Assembly (NCBI GenBank): GCA_035260865.1
Contig: DATFUK010000336.1
Coordinates: forward strand, 1-34,646
Length of the DNA: 34,646 nt
Source of the DNA: Candidatus Methylomirabilota bacterium
Lineage (GTDB): Bacteria > Methylomirabilota > Methylomirabilia > Rokubacteriales > CSP1-6
Direction of reading: 5' to 3'
The notes under the pieces are model-generated. The model saw only the letters and a list, made by a program, of their open reading frames with translations. It was not told where the DNA came from and searched no databases. Positions 5,017-31,241 of this stretch are shown piece by piece; within the stretch, counting starts at the first letter, position 1; each line of letters starts with the position of its first letter. The translations under genes were made by a program, and so were the position numbers.

Positions 5017-6060
5017 TCAGGCGCCGGCTTGTTCTTGCCAGAGCCCCAAGGCGCGCAGGGCAGGCTCGTCGTTGAGATGGAAGAGACAGGCGGGCGCCTG
5101 GCTCGATCGGTTGCGGTGCGTGGTCCAGTGCCACGGCGGCACCACGAACACGTCGCCGGCCTGCCAGTCGAGCGTCCGATCGCCGATCTGGCTCTCGCCC
5201 TGTCCCTCGACCACGTGGACCACCTCGCTGCCGGTGCGGCGCTCGCGCTCGGTCTCCTCGCCGGGTCGCAGCCACCGCGCCTCGGAGCCGATGGTCTTCA
5301 GCGGATACTCGCCGGTGCGCGGGTTCACGTGACGCAGCACCACCGGGGCGCGCCGCGGCGCGGTGGCGGCCATGGCCGCGAGCGCGGCGCGCGCGGTGCG
5401 CCACGGCCAGCGCACCTGCGGGTAGCCGGTCTCCTCGTAGCGCGAGCGGCGAGGTACGAGACCGGCCGCGGTGAATTCGTCCTGGGAGGAGTCGGTCTCG
5501 GTGGTCGGGCTGGACGCGGGCTTCATGGCCGAGGCCCAGTTGGCCTCGACGCCGCGGACGAGTGGAATGTCGAGGCCGTCCAGCCAGATCACCGGCTCGC
5601 GGCCCTCGTGCCCGTGGTCGTGCCCGCGCATCGGCGGCGTGATGATGAAATCGCCGGGTTCCATCGCGCACCGGACGCCGTCCACCGTGGTGTAGGCGCC
5701 CGTGCCCTCGACGATCAGCCGCAGCGCCGCCGCGGTATGGTGATGGCTCGGCGCCGCCTCCCCGGGCAGGATGATCTGCAGCCCCGCGTAGAGCGTGGCG
5801 GTCGCCGAGAAGTTGCCGGGCAGGCCGGGATTGCACAGCACCAGGACCCGCCGCTCCGCCTGCTCGATCGGCACCAGGCGCGCCGCCTCGAGCAGGGGCG
5901 CGCGCAGCTCGCTCCATCGCCACCGGTGCGGCACCACGCGCGTCTGCCGCTCCGGCGGCAGGAGCGCGTGGAGCGCGGTCCAGAGCGGCGCCAGCGAGAG
6001 CGCCTCGAGCCGGTCGGAGTACGCGGCGGGGAGCTGAGCGTCGCGGGTCGAGAGGCTCAT
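5017..6060 (-). CDS. Gentisate 1,2-dioxygenase-like bicupin dioxygenase, 347 aa
   Basis: Bicupin length and layout. First cupin has PGEAAPSHHHTAAALRLIVEG. Second cupin has VVHVVEGQG...GDVFVVPPW. Confidence 0.8.
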   Translation of the reverse strand: MSLSTRDAQLPAAYSDRLEALSLAPLWTALHALLPPERQTRVVPHRWRWSELRAPLLEAARLVPIEQAERRVLVLCNPGLPGNFSATATLYAGLQIILPGEAAPSHHHTAAALRLIVEGTGAYTTVDGVRCAMEPGDFIITPPMRGHDHGHEGREPVIWLDGLDIPLVRGVEANWASAMKPASSPTTETDSSQDEFTAAGLVPRRSRYEETGYPQVRWPWRTARAALAAMAATAPRRAPVVLRHVNPRTGEYPLKTIGSEARWLRPGEETERERRTGSEVVHVVEGQGESQIGDRTLDWQAGDVFVVPPWHWTTHRNRSSQAPACLFHLNDEPALRALGLWQEQAGA

Positions 6061-6064
6061 GACG

Positions 6065-7300
6065 TCAGCAATGCTTGCAGGGCGGGAACTCCCGCGAGTA
6101 GACCGGCTGCTCGAGGAATCGCTGGGGATCGTAGGTCCAGAACTGGCTGACCGCCGGATAGGTGTGGATCACCGTGTTCTGGAGCGCCCCGCCGACCTTC
6201 TCGACCTTGCGGATGTAGATGTTCTGGGTCGGGTTGCCGTAGGCGTCGATCTTGACCGGCCCGCGCGGCGCGTCGGTGATCTCGACCCGACGCAGGGCCG
6301 CCATCAACGCGGCCCGGTCCTCGACCCGCCCGTTCACCGCCTTCACCGCCTCCTCGATCACCCGGGCCCCGGTGTAGCAGTTCTCCGAGTAGAACGACGG
6401 CGAGCGCGCGTACGCCTTCTCGTACGCGGCGCGGAACTTCCGGTTGGCCGTCGTGTCGAGCGCAGCCGAGTAGTGGTGCGCGCTGGTCACCCCGATGGCC
6501 TCGTCGCCGAGCTGGGCGAGCACGTGCTCGTCGGTATGGGTCCCGCCCGCGATCAGCGGGACCCGGCCCTTGAGGCTGCTCTCCGCGTACTGCTTGGTGA
6601 ACAGCACGCTCCAGCGCCCGAGGGCCAGCACGAAGACCGCGTCGGCGTCCCGCTTCACCTGGGCCAGGTACGGCGCGTAGTCCTGGATGTTGAGCGGCAC
6701 CCAGATCTTCTGGATGACCTGGCCGCCGTTGTCCTCGAAGGCCTTGTGGAAGCCGCCGACCGTCTCCCACCCGAAGGCGTAGTCCAGGCTGATCGTGACG
6801 ACCTTCTTGTACTTGAGCACCTTCGCCGCGTACTCCCCGAACGGATGCATGTTGCCACCGGCCGAGAAGCCGGTGCGCACGAGCCACGCCGGCCGCTTGC
6901 GCTGGGTCAGGTCGTCGGCCGAGTTGATGGGGTAGATGGTGGGGATCCCGGCCGCCTCGATCGGCGGGACCAGCGCGTAGGCCACGTTGGAGAGGATGAC
7001 CCCGGCGAGCAGGTTGACCCGGTCGCTGTCGATGAGCTTCCGCAGCTTGGTCACCGCGGTGGCGGGCTGGCCCTCGGTGTCCTCGAGGATGACCTCGAGC
7101 TTGCGCCCCGCGATCTGCATCCCGTGCTCCTGCCAGTACAGCTCGCAGCCGCTGTACATGTCCTTCCCGGCCTGGGCGATGGCGCCCGAGATCGGCGACA
7201 GGAATCCGATCTTGATCGGGCCCTGCGCCTCGGCGGGCCCGGTGGCCATCGCCCCGACCAGCCCGACCACCACCGCGAGCAGCGTTCCGATCGTGCGCAT
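6065..7300 (-). CDS. ABC transporter substrate-binding protein, Leu/Ile/Val-binding (Peripla_BP_6) type, with signal peptide
   Basis: Signal peptide MRTIGTLLAVVVGLVGAMATGPAEA followed by IKIGFLSPISG. GGAGG lies 9 nt upstream of ATG 7300. The alternative start is 7321. Confidence 0.85.
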   Translation of the reverse strand: MRTIGTLLAVVVGLVGAMATGPAEAQGPIKIGFLSPISGAIAQAGKDMYSGCELYWQEHGMQIAGRKLEVILEDTEGQPATAVTKLRKLIDSDRVNLLAGVILSNVAYALVPPIEAAGIPTIYPINSADDLTQRKRPAWLVRTGFSAGGNMHPFGEYAAKVLKYKKVVTISLDYAFGWETVGGFHKAFEDNGGQVIQKIWVPLNIQDYAPYLAQVKRDADAVFVLALGRWSVLFTKQYAESSLKGRVPLIAGGTHTDEHVLAQLGDEAIGVTSAHHYSAALDTTANRKFRAAYEKAYARSPSFYSENCYTGARVIEEAVKAVNGRVEDRAALMAALRRVEITDAPRGPVKIDAYGNPTQNIYIRKVEKVGGALQNTVIHTYPAVSQFWTYDPQRFLEQPVYSREFPPCKHC

Positions 7301-17652: not shown

Positions 17653-18473
17653 CGGCCCCGCCGCCGCTCGACGCGCCGCGCCACCGCCCAGTAGCGGAGC
17701 GCGGGCGGCACCAGCGGGAGGCCGCCGCGCGTGGCGGCGGCGAGGCCCCGCATCACGCGCTCGCGCCGGCCGTCCCAGGAGAAACCGTAGGCCGCGCGGA
17801 GCGCGGGGGGCAGCAGACCGACGGCCGGCAGCGCGGCCAGCCAGAGCGCGGGCCGGACGACGGCCGGCGCGGGTGGCCGAATGATCTCCCGGGAGAGCCG
17901 ACGGGCCGTGTCGGTCACCTCGATCACGCCCCCGCCGAGCATCGCGTCCAGGTACTCGCGGAGCCGGCCCTCCGTTCGCGGCAGCCGGCCCGGCGGGATC
18001 CCGAGCGCCGACTCGATGCCACCGGCCTCCTCGCAGTAGCGATCGGCCTCCGCGGGGCTGACCGGCCCCACGAAGAGCCGATACGTCAGCAGGAACGACT
18101 CGACCAGGGTCGCGTGCACCCAGGTGAGCAGCTCGGGATCGTGGGCGCTGTACGCGGCCCCGCCCGCCGACTCGTCGAGCCGCCCGTGGACCCGGTCGTG
18201 GATGGCGTTGATCCGGGCGGCGGCGCGGGCCGCCTCGTCCGCCGAGCCGAAGGTCAGCGCGAGCATCGCGGAAATCGTCCGGTGCAGGCGCCGGAACCGC
18301 CCCCAGCGGTCGGTCGTGAACCCGCTGTGCTCGGCCACCCCGCGCGCCACCTTCGGGTGCGCGATCTGGAGCAGGATGGCCCGGCCCCAGCCGGCCAGGA
18401 GCACCCGCTCCCGGTGGATCTTCCAGGCCATGCCACCCCCGACAAAAGCCTCGGCGGAGATCGACCCGGGCAT
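17649..18473 (-). CDS. MpaB/DUF2236 family oxygenase-like protein (track ORF trimmed to ATG 18473; alternative start 18431)
   Basis: WKIHRERVLLAGWGRAILLQIAHPKVARGV...INAIHDRVHG is typical of DUF2236. Confidence 0.75.
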   Translation of the reverse strand: MPGSISAEAFVGGGMAWKIHRERVLLAGWGRAILLQIAHPKVARGVAEHSGFTTDRWGRFRRLHRTISAMLALTFGSADEAARAAARINAIHDRVHGRLDESAGGAAYSAHDPELLTWVHATLVESFLLTYRLFVGPVSPAEADRYCEEAGGIESALGIPPGRLPRTEGRLREYLDAMLGGGVIEVTDTARRLSREIIRPPAPAVVRPALWLAALPAVGLLPPALRAAYGFSWDGRRERVMRGLAAATRGGLPLVPPALRYWAVARRVERRRGR

Positions 18474-18560
18474 GCGAGCATTATGCGCGTGGCCCGGAAA
18501 CTTCGGGAGCCCGTCGCCCGTTCTCTGAGAGTCACCCACTATCGTGGAAAGGAGCACGCC

Positions 18561-19112
18561 ATGCGTCGCATGACCCTGCTGCTGCTCGCGACCCTGCTGC
18601 TGGCCGCCGTCGGCCTCGGCGCGGCCGGCCCGGCCGCCGCCCTGGAAGTCGGCCAGAAGGCGCCCGATTTCACCTTGCCCGGTCCCGGTAACAAGCCCGT
18701 GAAGCTGTCCGAATTGACCGCCAAGGGTCCGGTGGTCGTCTTCACCTTCATCCAGGCGTTCACCAGCACCTGAAGCAAGGAGCTCCTCGGCTTCGAGGAG
18801 AGCCTGCCCAAGTTCACCGCCGCCGGGGCCCAGGTCGTGGGCGTGAGCGCCGACCACGCGGCCACGCTCGAGGCCTTCACCAAGCAGAACAAGATCAACT
18901 ACCTCCTGCTGTCCGACTTCCGCCGCGCGATGCTACCCGGGTACGACGCGCTGGTCACCGACGAGAAGAGCCCGATCTTCCGCTACGCCAAGCGCGCCTA
19001 CTACGTCATCGACAAGAACGGCGTGGTCCGGTACATGAAGGTCATGGAGAACCCGCTCGACCTGCTGGAGCCGGCCGACGTGCTGAAGGCGCTCAAGGAC
19101 GCGGGCGTGTGA
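18561..19112 (+). CDS. AhpC/TSA-family peroxiredoxin with in-frame TGA (18771-18773) read as selenocysteine; N-terminal signal peptide; 183 aa
   Basis: Track ORFs 18114..18773 and 18837..19112 share a frame. Read-through gives VVVFTFIQAFTST-U-SKELLGFEES...GVSADH...LLSDF, the Prx active-site layout with U at the peroxidatic Cys. GGAAAGGAG lies 6 nt upstream of ATG 18561. A hairpin follows the TGA. Confidence 0.8.
18779..18804 (+). promoter_or_regulatory. Putative bacterial SECIS hairpin for the peroxiredoxin UGA
   Basis: 7-bp stem CUCCUCG/CGAGGAG (18783-18789 and 18794-18800) with a GCUU loop at 18790-18793. There are 2 further GC pairs beyond a 2x2 internal loop. The loop starts 17 nt after the UGA. 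Confidence 0.55.
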
Positions 19113-19663
19113 GCACGCGCCCATTCGCCGCATCCATCCTGATCGCGGCGGCGCTCTGGGCCGGGGCCGCGGCGGCGCAGCCCGCCGCCGCGCCGCCGGC
19201 CTGGGCGAAGCTTGGCGTCCAGCCCTACGAATCGCCCAAGCCCGCCCCGGCCTTCGCGCTGCCCGCGCTCGACGGGCGCACCGTGCGGCTCGAGGATCAG
19301 AAGGGCAAAGCGCTGCTGCTCTTCTTCTGGGCCACCTGGTGACCGACCTGCCGGGAGGAGTTACCTTCCGTCAATCGGTTGTACGAGGAATTCAAGGGCC
19401 AGGGGCTCGAAGTCTTGCTGATCAGCTTTCGCGAGAGCGCGGATCTCGTGAAGCGCACGGTGGCCGAGCGCGGCTACACCGCGCCGGTGCTGCTCGACGC
19501 CTCGGGTGACGTCACCGGCCGGGCCTACGGCGTCTTCGGGCCGCCCACCGTCTACCTGGTGGACCGCGAGGGGCGGCTGGTCGGCCGGATGATCGGCGGC
19601 GGCGACTGGAGCGGCGCCACCGCGCGCGAGGTCATCCGCGGCTTCGTCGCGCCCAAGCGCTGA
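19109..19663 (+). CDS. TlpA/ResA-like thioredoxin-fold thiol:disulfide oxidoreductase with in-frame TGA (19340-19342) read as selenocysteine (UxxC motif); signal peptide; 184 aa
   Basis: Track ORFs 19109..19342 and 19379..19663 share a frame. Read-through gives LLLFFWATW-U-PTC-REELPSVNRLYEEFKGQGLEVL, the canonical WCxxC redox motif with U in the first position. The GTG start overlaps the upstream stop by 4 nt. Confidence 0.8.
19352..19370 (+). promoter_or_regulatory. Putative bacterial SECIS hairpin for the TlpA-like UGA
   Basis: 7-bp stem CGGGAGG/CCUUCCG (one G-U pair) with an AGUUA loop at 19359-19363. The loop starts 17 nt after the UGA, the same spacing as in the neighbouring gene. Confidence 0.5.
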
Positions 19664-19667
19664 CCGG

Positions 19668-20240
19668 CTAGCTGCGGCCGGCGGCCAGTGGGGGCGGGCC
19701 CGCCTGGTCGCGGGCGTGGATCGCCATCGCGACGAGCGCGCCCACCAGATCGCCGAGGCCGGCGCGCGCGGCCGGGTCGGCGAGCTTGCCGTCCTGGAAG
19801 TGACCGGACTCCAGGTACACGCTGGTCGGCACCACCCGCGCCCCGAACCACGCGAGCACCGCGCGGAGCTGCCAGTCCACCCCCAGGTAGTGATGGAGCG
19901 TCGCGCCCATCGCCACGATGCCCACCGGCTTGGCCCGCAGCGCCTCCACCGGCGTGAGATCGAGCAGGTTCTTGAGCGCGCCGGTGAACGAGGCGCGGTA
20001 GACGGGGCTCGCGAGCAGGACCGCGTCGGCCTCGGCGATCGCGCCGACGACCCGCGCGGTGTCGTCGGGGTAGCGGTCGAGCGCGCGCCCGTCCGCGAAG
20101 GAGACGCGATGCTCGCCCAGGCTCAGCACGGTGGCGGCGACCGCCGGCTGCTCGGCCGCGCGATCGGCCGCGAAGCGCACCGCCGCGTCGAGACGCCCGG
20201 GCGGCGTCACCGCGCCCACCACCGCCAGGACCCGGGTCAC
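19668..20240 (-). CDS. NADPH-dependent FMN reductase (SsuE-like), 190 aa
   Basis: ASPVYRASFTGALKNLLDL closely matches the SsuE-family motif. GTGA overlap with the upstream monooxygenase stop. Confidence 0.8.
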   Translation of the reverse strand: MTRVLAVVGAVTPPGRLDAAVRFAADRAAEQPAVAATVLSLGEHRVSFADGRALDRYPDDTARVVGAIAEADAVLLASPVYRASFTGALKNLLDLTPVEALRAKPVGIVAMGATLHHYLGVDWQLRAVLAWFGARVVPTSVYLESGHFQDGKLADPAARAGLGDLVGALVAMAIHARDQAGPPPLAAGRS

Positions 20241-28864: not shown

Positions 28865-29509
28865 TCAGCGCTTGGCCGGCTCGGGCTGGGGCGTGAGGCG
28901 CAGGTACGGCTTGAGCGCGCGCCAGCCCCTCGGGAACTTCGCCCGCGCCTCCTCGTCGGTGACCGCGGGCACGATGATCACGTCCTCGCCCGGCCTCCAG
29001 TTCACCGGGGTCGCGACGCGATGTCCGTCGGTGAGCTGCAGCGAATCGATCACGCGCAGGATCTCGTCGAAGTTGCGGCCGGTGGTCTGGGGATACGTGA
29101 TGAACAGGCGGATCTTCTTCTTGGGATCGATCACGAACACGGTGCGGACGGTGTAGACCTCGTCGTGGGCGGGATGGATCATGCCGTAGAGGCTGGCCAC
29201 CTTGCGGTCCGGATCGGCGATGATCGGGAAGTCCACCGCGTAGCCCTGCGTCTCCTTGATGTCGGCGAGCCAGCCCTGGTGCGACGTGACCGGATCGATC
29301 GAGAGGCCGATCGCCTTGACCCCGCGCCGCTCGAACTCGGGCCGGAGGCGCGCGACGTAGCCGAGCTCGGTCGTGCACACCGGCGTGAAGTCGCGCGGGT
29401 GGGAGAAGAGGACCGCCCAGCTGTCGCCGAGCCAGTCGTGGAAGCTGACGGGGCCGGCGGTGGTCTCGGCCTGGAAATCGGGAGCGGTGTCGCCTAGTCG
29501 CAGGGTCAT
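28865..29509 (-). CDS. 1-Cys peroxiredoxin (Prx6 type), 214 aa
   Basis: LFSHPRDFTPVCTTELG active site and a Prx6-type C-terminal extension. AAGGAGA lies 7 nt upstream of ATG 29509. Confidence 0.9.
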   Translation of the reverse strand: MTLRLGDTAPDFQAETTAGPVSFHDWLGDSWAVLFSHPRDFTPVCTTELGYVARLRPEFERRGVKAIGLSIDPVTSHQGWLADIKETQGYAVDFPIIADPDRKVASLYGMIHPAHDEVYTVRTVFVIDPKKKIRLFITYPQTTGRNFDEILRVIDSLQLTDGHRVATPVNWRPGEDVIIVPAVTDEEARAKFPRGWRALKPYLRLTPQPEPAKR

Positions 29510-29543
29510 GGTCGTGTCTCCTTGTCGGTTCGGGTTGTCGGGG

Positions 29544-31241
29544 TCAGCCTTCGAGGCCATGGGGGACGGGGCCGGGGGAGGCGTCGCGGGTCACCGCCGC
29601 GACGGGCGCGCCCGCCAGGTACGTCCGGAGCTCGTCGTCGGTGCGCGCGGCGCAGAACGCGCGGAAGCTCTCGCCCGCGTGGCGCTCGGCGAGGTAGACG
29701 CGCAGCAGGCGCTCCACCGCCTCGGGCACCGCGTGGGCGGGCACCCGGTAGCCGACGGGCCGGGCCACCGCCTGGTGGCGGCCGACCGCGCCGCCCACGC
29801 AGAAGTAGTAGGCGTCCACCAGGCGGCCGTCCATCTTGATCTTCTTGCCCTCGATACCGATGTCCGCGATCCAGTGCTGGCCGCAGCTGTTGGGGCAGCC
29901 GGTGACGTTGATGCGCACGTGCTCCTGGAAACCGGGCAGGCGGCCCTCCAGGTCCTCCACGAGCCAGCGGGCGAAGGCCTTGGTCTCGGTCAGCGCGAGC
30001 TTGCAGAACTCGCTGCCGGTGCAGGCCACCGTCCCGCGGCGGAACGGAGACGCGTCCAGCGGGAAGCCGGCGCGCTCGATCGCGCGCTCGAGCTCGGCCG
30101 CCCGGGCCCGGGGCGCGTTGACCACGATGAGGTTCTGCATCGTGGTGGTCCGGAGCTCCCCGGTGCCGAAGCGCTCCGCGAGCCCGGCGACCTCGCGCAT
30201 CTGGTCCGGGGTGAGCCGGCCCCGCAGGATCGGCAGGCCCGCGTAGACGAGCCCGGCCTGCTTCTGCGGATGGATCCCCACGTGGTCGCGATAGGCCTCC
30301 TCGGGCAGGGTCTCCGGGACCGCCGGATCGAGGGAAAAGCCCAGGCGCGCGTGGAGCGCGTTCAGGAACCGGTCCGGCGTCCAGCCGTGGTCGAGGAAGA
30401 GGAACTTGAGTCGCGCCTTCTCGCGGTTCTGGCGGAGCACGTCGCTGTCGCGGAAGATCTCGGAGACGCCCTTGACCACCGCGAGCACCTGGTCGGGCCG
30501 CACGAAGGCGTTGACCCGGAGCGCGAGATGCGGCTGGGTGGACAGCCCGCCGCCCACCCGTAGCGAGTAGCCCACGCGCCCGCTGTAGCCGTCGCGCACC
30601 GCGGTGAGACCCACGTCGTTGATCTCGGGATAGCTGCACCACACGCGGCAGCCGGTGATCGAGACCTTGTACTTGCGCGGCAGGTTGTAGAACTCGGCGC
30701 TGCCGTTCACCATCGCGGTCGCGGCCTCCACGAGCGGCGAGGCGTCCACGATCTCGTCGGCGTCGAGCCCGGCGAGCGGGCAGCCGGTGATGTTGCGCGT
30801 CACGTCGCCGCAGGTGCCCAGGCTGCTGAGCCCGCACTCGCCCAGCGCGGAGAAGATCGCGGGCAGGTCCTCGATCCGCACCCAGTGCAGCTGCACGTTC
30901 TGGCGGACGGTGAGATCGGCCACTCCGCGCGCGTGGCGCTCGGCCAGGTCGGCGAGCACGCGGAGCTGCGCGGCCGACAGGATCCCGTTGGGGATGCGGA
31001 CGCGCAGCATGAAGTAAGGCACCGCCTTCCCTTCTCCGCCCTTGCCTCCCACCGCGCCCACCCCGTCCCCCTGGGTATAGATGCCCCACCATCGGAAGTA
31101 CGTGCCGAGCCACTCCGGGGGAATCGCCTGGAAGCCTTCCCGCGCGAAGCGGACGATCTCCGCGTGCGCGGCCCACGGGTTCAGCTCCCGCTTGAGCCGC
31201 TCCACCCGCTGCGCCTTGGTCTCCTTCGCCGCCTCGTTCAC
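29544..31241 (-). CDS. Ferredoxin-dependent sulfite reductase, NirA/SirA family (siroheme-[4Fe-4S]), 565 aa
   Basis: Two nitrite/sulfite reductase repeats and the Cys cluster CTGSEFC...TGCPNSC. AGGAGG lies 7 nt upstream of GTG 31241. The sulfite versus nitrite assignment is inferred from the siroheme and Cys-leader context. Confidence 0.88.
   Translation of the reverse strand: MNEAAKETKAQRVERLKRELNPWAAHAEIVRFAREGFQAIPPEWLGTYFRWWGIYTQGDGVGAVGGKGGEGKAVPYFMLRVRIPNGILSAAQLRVLADLAERHARGVADLTVRQNVQLHWVRIEDLPAIFSALGECGLSSLGTCGDVTRNITGCPLAGLDADEIVDASPLVEAATAMVNGSAEFYNLPRKYKVSITGCRVWCSYPEINDVGLTAVRDGYSGRVGYSLRVGGGLSTQPHLALRVNAFVRPDQVLAVVKGVSEIFRDSDVLRQNREKARLKFLFLDHGWTPDRFLNALHARLGFSLDPAVPETLPEEAYRDHVGIHPQKQAGLVYAGLPILRGRLTPDQMREVAGLAERFGTGELRTTTMQNLIVVNAPRARAAELERAIERAGFPLDASPFRRGTVACTGSEFCKLALTETKAFARWLVEDLEGRLPGFQEHVRINVTGCPNSCGQHWIADIGIEGKKIKMDGRLVDAYYFCVGGAVGRHQAVARPVGYRVPAHAVPEAVERLLRVYLAERHAGESFRAFCAARTDDELRTYLAGAPVAAVTRDASPGPVPHGLEG

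Follow-up and report, generated by a model that had tools for sequence, protein, structure and literature searches.

A 34,646-nucleotide stretch of DNA from a Candidatus Methylomirabilota bacterium (contig DATFUK010000336.1; the whole stretch is referred to here as the window) contains, at positions 18561–19663 of the forward strand, two overlapping genes that each carry one in-frame TGA codon. Comparative sequence evidence supports the reading of both TGAs as selenocysteine (Sec) codons. In what we consider the probable explanation, the genes make up a single bicistronic operon whose products, a BCP-type peroxiredoxin (Prx) with Sec71 as its sole redox residue and a TlpA/ResA-like thioredoxin-fold partner, are both exported by the general Sec pathway and would constitute a selenium-based hydroperoxide relay of the cell envelope that is fed by CcdA. 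Homology, gene linkage and a precedent in Caulobacter point to this relay. The features of the locus are listed below.

18550..18554, + strand: Shine-Dalgarno-like AGGAG, 6 nt 5' of the gene 1 ATG (read from the sequence)
18561..19112, + strand: gene 1, predicted exported BCP/PrxQ-type peroxiredoxin selenoprotein, 183 codons, T-x-x-U, zero Cys (translation)
18561..18641, + strand: predicted Sec-type signal peptide of gene 1, 27 aa, MRRMTLLLLATLLLAAVGLGAAGPAAA, cleavage before LEVGQKAPDF (heuristic)
18771..18773, + strand: Sec codon of gene 1, UGA for selenocysteine 71 at the peroxidatic position
18783..18800, + strand: candidate SECIS hairpin of gene 1, 7-bp stem CUCCUCG/CGAGGAG, loop GCUU at 18790–18793 (fold)
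19109..19112, + strand: start/stop overlap GTGA, gene 2 start on gene 1 stop, translational coupling
19109..19663, + strand: gene 2, predicted exported TlpA/ResA-like thioredoxin-fold selenoprotein, 184 codons, WATW-U-PT-C, one Cys (translation)
19109..19177, + strand: predicted signal peptide of gene 2, 23 aa, MSTRPFAASILIAAALWAGAAAA, followed by QP (heuristic)
19340..19342, + strand: Sec codon of gene 2, UGA for selenocysteine 78 at the N-terminal nucleophile position of the CxxC motif
19352..19370, + strand: SECIS hairpin of gene 2, stem CGGGAGG/CCUUCCG, loop AGUUA at 19359–19363 (fold and covariation)

In-frame TGA codons and the hairpins behind them

Gene 1 runs from ATG 18561 to TGA 19110–19112 and gene 2 from GTG 19109 to TGA 19661–19663. 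Their single in-frame TGAs (18771–18773, codon 71, and 19340–19342, codon 78) were the only candidates in the window in a six-frame scan for TGAs with coding-like flanks. Relatives were collected in a survey with one genome per species, which yielded 566 loci, and the best 80 of these were analysed. TGA occupies the same codon of the Prx gene in 80 of 80 loci; in the partner gene it is found in 70 intact and two frameshifted copies of this set and in 27 further metagenome loci. Cysteine is present at the Prx site in the distant homologues P0009, P0012 and P0013, and at the partner site in P0124–P0133. In both genes, an in-frame UGA that is kept across species lies on the catalytic cysteine of the homologues, and the coding sequence is conserved on both sides of it, with a high third-position G+C content. 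The Prx gene itself is terminated by TGA in 69 of 69 pairs with aligned C-termini; since TGA serves both as Sec codon and as stop codon within one operon, the genetic code is not reassigned. Together with the covarying hairpins described below, these data bear out the initial annotation, which had read both genes as selenoprotein genes. A Methylomirabilota metagenome-assembled genome with 63 selenoprotein genes has been reported, and the phylum is reported to be rich in selenoproteins (PMC13188914).

Alternatively, the TGAs might be true stops of split or decaying genes, sequencing errors, or codons for tryptophan or glycine. Public gene calls, which split both genes or give W or G at the site, would agree with this, as would the lack of Sec machinery in the window: ARAGORN detected no tRNA and hence no tRNA-Sec there, none of selA, selB, selC and selD was found among the open reading frames scanned, and Rfam at gathering thresholds returned no element. 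We nevertheless give this explanation next to no chance, as it is already contradicted by the comparative data: by the retention of TGA in the Prx gene of all 80 species-level loci and in the partner gene of about 72, between strongly conserved flanks with high third-position G+C, by its exact coincidence with the catalytic cysteine, by the covariation of the hairpins 3' of it, and by the termination of the Prx gene with the same codon in all 69 pairs.

The appearance of the two genes in public databases is instructive in this respect. Protein searches returned hundreds of close homologues, nearly all of them C-terminal fragments of 101–113 residues that start just past the TGA. The few full-length records show W (P0002–P0008, P0123) or G (P0010, P0122) at the Sec site, which indicates that these records were translated under another genetic code (short contigs), and only few show Cys. 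Because public gene calls cut both genes at the TGA or mistranslate them, the family is almost invisible as full-length proteins. One record, a 131-residue protein from a 573-nt ENA contig (P0121), has the C-terminal part of the TlpA-like protein joined ahead of its N-terminal part in a manner resembling a circular permutation; this order is probably an assembly artefact of the short contig.

Bacterial selenocysteine insertion sequence (SECIS) elements place the SelB-binding loop at a set distance from the UGA. Hairpins were folded with RNAfold, and their positions were counted from the U of the UGA. The stem of gene 1 is formed by 18783–18789 and 18794–18800 (nt 13–19 and 24–30) and that of gene 2 by 19352–19358 and 19364–19370 (nt 13–19 and 25–31), and both loops begin at nt 20, which is the 17th nucleotide past the codon. 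At 72% G+C, the single-sequence folds are at chance level (z = -1.4 and -1.0, with 20 and 37 of 200 shuffles being equal), and the hairpins were therefore judged by comparison with relatives. The gene 2 hairpin is present in all 70 sequences compared, with 97.5% of cells paired and compensatory double changes in three pairs (for example CGGUCGG/CCGACCG in L077). None of 500 shuffles reached the observed values, slid registers were 42–75% paired, and RNAalifold recovered the identical hairpin independently.

The short hairpin of gene 1 is perfect in the clade of the window (window, L001–L006 and L008), within which it is also predicted by RNAalifold, and near-perfect in six more sequences; family-wide, 52.8% of its cells are paired. 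Most Prx relatives have a longer hairpin at nt 18–52 with an apical loop at about nt 33–35 (85.4% paired, 42 compensatory cells), whose covariation score was reached by 0 of 500 shuffles and which is broken in the window. Since RNAalifold gave no consensus structure for the entire set of 81 Prx segments, the family was split into clades. Both genes are thus followed, past their UGA, by a hairpin of the SECIS type. The difference between clades in the post-UGA hairpin of the Prx gene (window 18771–18825 versus L009–L080), with some sequences carrying both forms, looks like SECIS turnover in one gene family.

Identical UGA-to-loop spacing in the two genes had been put forward as a property of the pair. 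The distance of 17 nt does apply to both genes of the window, but equal spacing is confined to the window's closest clade (8 of 81 sequences) and is not a conserved feature of the pair. Given the fixed geometry of bacterial SECIS elements it is also expected and not informative. In the decoding model that we propose, the downstream hairpin would set the SelB-binding loop at a fixed distance and so cause each UGA to be decoded as Sec, while the UGA that ends gene 1 without such a hairpin would lead to termination.

The coupled genes and their predicted products

The start codon of gene 2 (GTG 19109–19111) shares bases with the stop codon of gene 1 (19110–19112), reading GTGA, as was described initially. 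Among 69 pairs, the junction between the Prx and partner genes is a 4-nt overlap (ATGA or GTGA) in 50, a 1-nt overlap (TGATG) in 17 and a 2-nt gap in two; stop and start thus overlap in 67 of 69 pairs, as is typical of a translationally coupled operon. A U-x-x-C partner lies directly downstream in about 72 of the 80 Prx loci (intact in 70, frameshifted in L020 and L022), which, taken with the overlap, substantiates the earlier description of coupled neighbours. One of the 80 loci stops at a contig edge and about nine are without partner. By their labels, 69 loci belong to Rokubacteria, Methylomirabilota or NC10, and 11 to bins with other or no label; L058, L063, L068 and L069 are pair loci with an NC10 label. 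When the flanking open reading frames of the 80 loci and the window were clustered, no conserved third gene emerged, and the flanks vary; the pair is the only conserved neighbourhood among the loci, which we count in favour of a functional link. Scans for the sigma-70 consensus and for terminators found no promoter or intrinsic terminator in 18250–19850. The two genes probably form one bicistronic operon, in which, owing to the GTGA overlap, gene 2 would be initiated mainly by ribosomes finishing gene 1. With such coupled initiation, both proteins would be made together and only upon successful Sec decoding.

In the two loci with a frameshifted partner, both from MFD-series assemblies, the frameshift in the TlpA-like gene lies shortly 3' of the SECIS hairpin (L020, about 5760–5800; L022, about 6750–6800); the copy is decaying, or else an indel arose during assembly. 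L020 belongs to the same genome as L019, where it is the second copy.

With cysteine put at the TGA, the gene 1 product matches Pfam AhpC-TSA (PF00578) over profile positions 1–124 of 124 (E = 2.7e-29); it is an AhpC/TSA-Redoxin protein and possesses the AhpC/TSA thioredoxin-fold domain of BCP/PrxQ-type peroxiredoxins. Its nearest solved structures are the archaeal Bcp-type Prx 2ywn, 3hjp and 2cx3 (E = 1e-27 to 2.5e-24). The active-site segment FTSTU aligns with FTQVC of 2ywn, and KRAYYVID with KRAVFVID. In an alignment of 10 homologues T62 is invariant and R145 nearly invariant, which means that the threonine of the TxxC motif and the active-site arginine are in place. The product is therefore probably a peroxiredoxin of the BCP type, and peroxidase activity at Sec71 would be expected from this kinship. 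No NCBIfam model, including those for PrxU and for ResA-like WAxxUGC proteins, reached its cut-off with either protein, and hence no curated family name can be assigned; against PrxU (NF040737), the gene 1 product scored 32 bits at a cut-off of 270.

The gene 2 product, likewise with cysteine put at the TGA, matches the Pfam families AhpC-TSA, Redoxin, Thioredoxin_8 and Thioredoxin. Among its solved relatives are 3kcm (a Geobacter thioredoxin-family protein), ResA and TlpA 1jfu (E = 9e-29 to 9e-16). The segment FWATWCPPCREE of 3kcm aligns with FWATW(U)PTCREE of gene 2, and GPPT aligns with GVPET. The protein has a thioredoxin fold, a centre of the W-C-x-x-C type (W-U-P-T-C) and a cis-Pro loop. 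The NCBIfam ResA and TlpA models match it below their cut-offs, and the 'WAxxUGC' ResA-like model, under whose cut-off gene 2 falls far, describes a different motif.

Both N-termini encoded in the window are hydrophobic and end in Ala-x-Ala, and the presequences were judged by heuristic signal-peptide features. In 74 orthologues, the Prx presequence has a median length of 27 aa, a net charge of +2 over the first 8 residues and a best 10-residue Kyte-Doolittle mean of 2.76; the cleavage site has Ala (71) or Ser (3) at position -1 and mostly Ala (58) or Val (13) at position -3. The mature start LEVGQKAPDF is almost invariant and the presequence preceding it is divergent. As the Pfam domain begins at residue 30, the presequence is added onto the catalytic domain. 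In the partner, 69 of 69 orthologues have one or more basic residues, a hydrophobic core (median best-10 Kyte-Doolittle value 2.74, minimum 1.99), small residues and then a conserved (A)PDF/PAW segment. The conservation of these n-region, h-region and AxA features across 74 and 69 orthologues is in line with the signal peptides originally assigned to both products; the presequence of gene 2 may be a signal anchor instead of a cleaved peptide.

The MRR start of the Prx raised the twin-arginine (Tat) route, which we rejected because the RR is unconserved among orthologues and the h-region is strongly hydrophobic. With the twin arginine in MRRM not being conserved, the general Sec route is favoured, and it is by this route that both proteins are probably exported. 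Exported selenoproteins were predicted earlier, in the SAO system.

Retention of Sec is asymmetric in that the peroxidase keeps selenium and the partner toggles between Sec and Cys. All six Cys-type partners examined, which carry WATWCPDC or WATWCPFC (P0126, P0127, P0129, P0131, P0132 and P0133), are located directly behind a TGA-containing Prx gene (loci L081, L082, L165, L167, L168 and L169), and the pair is thus maintained when the partner uses Cys in place of Sec. The Cys-type Prx P0013 is followed by a different small thioredoxin. Joint switching of the two genes between Sec and Cys forms, a question raised in the initial annotation, is thereby rejected, as the genes do not change together.

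A proposed envelope relay and competing explanations

The combination of a periplasmic peroxidase with a TlpA-type reductant has been characterised before: in Caulobacter crescentus, the exported Prx PprX was shown experimentally to be reduced by exported TlpA, for which the DsbD-family protein ScsB is the reductant (Cho et al. 2012, PMC3322552). The view that a pair such as the one described here is 'not a characterised system' must be given up to the extent that its sulfur form is known. Like the ScsB-TlpA-PprX relay, the window combines a BCP/PrxQ-type Prx with a predicted signal sequence and a TlpA-type thioredoxin with predicted export; the Caulobacter TlpA needs a DsbD-family membrane electron transporter, and a corresponding donor link is suggested here. 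As a Cys enzyme, PprX has the complete PxxxTxxC motif together with a resolving Cys, whereas the window Prx has Sec, zero Cys and no motif Pro. The window partner has a U-x-x-C centre, unlike Caulobacter TlpA. The Caulobacter genes have unlinked locus numbers (CC1673 and CC2210), whereas those in the window overlap, and the role of the donor ScsB could be filled here by one candidate only, CcdA, which is encoded elsewhere.

Prx (TxxU) and Prx-like/TlpA-like (UxxC) proteins are listed families of predicted selenoproteins (PMC13188914; PMC2398784). With the Sec-peroxiredoxins (TxxU, including PrxU NF040737), the gene 1 product shares Sec at the peroxidatic position of an AhpC/TSA fold; unlike PrxU, it belongs to the Bcp-like branch, has a predicted signal peptide and lacks both the motif Pro and a resolving Cys. 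Gene 2 resembles the Prx-like/TlpA-like (cd02966) UxxC selenoproteins in its PF00578/Redoxin-type thioredoxin fold and its U-x-x-C centre, a family which the surveys list without partner or localisation (PMC13188914; PMC2398784). The TlpA/ResA-CcdA modules of cytochrome c maturation likewise have an exported TlpA/ResA-like thioredoxin, whose dependence on a DsbD-family protein would be shared by the partner, but there CxxC is found beside ccdA and here UxxC beside a peroxiredoxin. The pair was not described in the literature searched, a search that did not cover the selenoprotein-neighbourhood study of Haft and Tolstoy 2025, and it seemingly represents a widespread, undescribed selenium variant of a known relay type. 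On the whole, the observations of the initial annotation stand at all their coordinates, while its interpretation needs correction on precedent, spacing and co-switching.

From these comparisons we infer peroxidase activity, partner specificity, electron donor and export route, and propose the following cycle. The Prx selenolate would reduce H2O2 or an organic hydroperoxide and thereby be converted to a selenenic acid. Because the Prx has no resolving Cys, Sec78 of the partner would attack this selenenic acid, and a mixed diselenide would form. Cys81 of the partner would then resolve the diselenide, by which the Prx is freed and a selenenylsulfide is left in the partner. Finally, a DsbD-family protein encoded elsewhere, most likely CcdA, would re-reduce the partner with electrons from cytoplasmic thioredoxin.

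It is tempting to speculate, if with considerable doubt, that the pair runs an all-selenium peroxide cycle outside the cytoplasm, in which a one-selenol Prx is recycled via an intermolecular diselenide with its U-x-x-C partner and which has been selected in Rokubacteria/NC10 for resistance to over-oxidation under the oxidising conditions of the envelope. To our knowledge, an intermolecular diselenide is not known as catalytic intermediate for any peroxiredoxin system. If such a cycle exists, the frequent Sec-to-Cys swaps that affect the partner only would mark which half of the relay needs selenium.

With regard to the electron donor, a motif scan found no CcdA/DsbD motif in the window, in agreement with the initial annotation, and also none in the flanks of the 80 loci; genuine CcdA/DsbD genes beside unrelated TlpA genes (L116 and L143) served as positive controls. 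A search of the genome for CcdA/DsbD had been recommended. One of the CcdA genes found beside unrelated TlpA genes, from a 73% G+C contig, was used as query and retrieved Methylomirabilota-labelled CcdA proteins with 88–89% identity. The ccdA gene for one of these (L172, 3001–3738, contig DATIWG010000048.1) is part of the same assembly, GCA_035519555.1, as the pair locus L010 (contig DATIWG010000074.1), both contigs having about 72% G+C. Thus, CcdA occurs in a bin that carries the pair, but not beside the pair loci. In L172 (2456–3738), and also in L116 (1813–3161), a Cys-type TlpA-like gene overlaps ccdA by 4 nt (ATGA); with these two genes, the lineage has a further envelope redox module that is translationally coupled.

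Such a module bears on the possibility that the pair acts in protein maturation as a thiol/selenol-disulfide oxidoreductase couple of the envelope, for example in the reduction of apocytochrome c or of copper-site cysteines as in the classical role of TlpA/ResA/CcmG, and that the Prx-like protein is no peroxidase. The greatest similarity of gene 2 is indeed to ResA, TlpA, DsbE and StoA models and structures, the Prx-like protein is devoid of the Pro of PxxxTxxC, and no NCBIfam peroxiredoxin model is matched at its cut-off. We regard this explanation as unlikely, however, given that the Thr, the peroxidatic position and the Arg are retained and that the closest solved proteins are Bcp-type peroxidases. 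Moreover, no cytochrome or copper-protein gene is conserved beside the pair, and the separate Cys-type TlpA-CcdA module in the same bin fits the maturation role better.

A 1-Sec Prx without resolving residue must pass its oxidising equivalent to another protein, and this feature would also suit a pair that works in the oxidising direction. The Prx would then use peroxide to oxidise the TlpA-like protein, which in turn would hand disulfides on to substrates in the envelope or to a target in signalling, following the model of peroxiredoxin-driven thiol oxidation in eukaryotic systems. The coupled translation of the two proteins and the lack of a partner reductant gene in the operon or its flanks are compatible with such a scheme. 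By contrast, proteins of the TlpA/ResA type are known to act as reductants, a pair-carrying bin contains CcdA, and no candidate substrate gene is conserved nearby, all of which renders the oxidising direction improbable. The characterised bacterial precedent, too, runs in the reducing direction (PMC3322552).

Several points weigh against the CcdA-fed peroxide relay. The Pro of PxxxTxxC, described as conserved across Prx (PMC3322552; PMC13188914), is absent from the gene 1 product owing to a one-residue deletion relative to 2ywn (tfi.qaft versus AFYpAAFT), and all relatives of gene 1 read [FY]T[FI][IVM]xA[FY]T around the missing residue. The Prx hairpin of the window is non-significant when taken alone and is not the structure kept in most relatives, and the assignment of signal peptides relies on heuristics. 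About nine Prx loci and several partner loci stand without the other gene. At none of the 80 pair loci did the motif scan detect a DsbD-family gene at a distance of up to 6 kb, and the CcdA of L172, adjacent to a Cys-type TlpA paralogue of its own, may work in cytochrome c maturation instead of for the pair. Finally, because the bin with CcdA and the pair is mislabelled as an archaeon, co-residence of the two in one genome is probable but not certain. Even with these points taken into account, the relay is in our judgement the probable explanation.

Genomic surroundings and implications

The upstream neighbour of the pair is an MpaB-family oxygenase gene on the opposite strand, and downstream lies a convergent FMN reductase gene. 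As the remaining genes of the window are housekeeping genes (metG, tmk, holB and others), the pair is regarded as an isolated bicistron. A second peroxiredoxin gene is present at 28865–29560 (− strand). It encodes a 1-Cys Prx with a 1-cysPrx_C domain and an ordinary Cys, which is presumably cytoplasmic because its first residues (MASKADPDNPNRQG...) are polar and not hydrophobic.

In partnerless Sec-Prx loci (L065 from 6535, L074 from 2028, L078 from 6538 and L079 from 6520), the next gene encodes a conserved small protein with no assigned family that carries the motifs GYVYNRxGE ... YRVSxWDYTW. Conversely, Sec-containing TlpA-like paralogues (WATW-U-P[TN]-C or U-S-T-C) are found without an upstream Prx gene in L086, L090, L096, L098, L100, L101, L106 and L109, and the U-x-x-C family thus also occurs by itself. 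Rokubacteria-type genes are also carried by contigs of about 72% G+C whose bins are named Nitrosotalea, Nitrosocosmicus, Acidoferrum, Verrucomicrobiia and others (L010 and L172 of assembly GCA_035519555.1, and L004, L007, L008, L012, L050, L056, L066 and L077); labelling errors or chimeric bins probably account for these off-taxon names.

Annotation pipelines miss both genes, since nearly every public gene call splits or mistranslates them. The locus offers a natural experiment on Sec retention: the peroxidase uses Sec at all 80 species-level loci, and Cys is seen only in its more remote homologues. The proposed recycling of a one-selenol Prx through its U-x-x-C partner and the unequal retention of Sec in the two genes deserve experimental attention. 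If our inference holds, the pair would be a conserved and widespread instance in which two selenoproteins are co-produced, co-exported and interact functionally. The only bacterial peroxiredoxin pathway of the envelope to have been characterised would then be extended to the chemistry of selenium and to a large phylum of uncultured soil bacteria.

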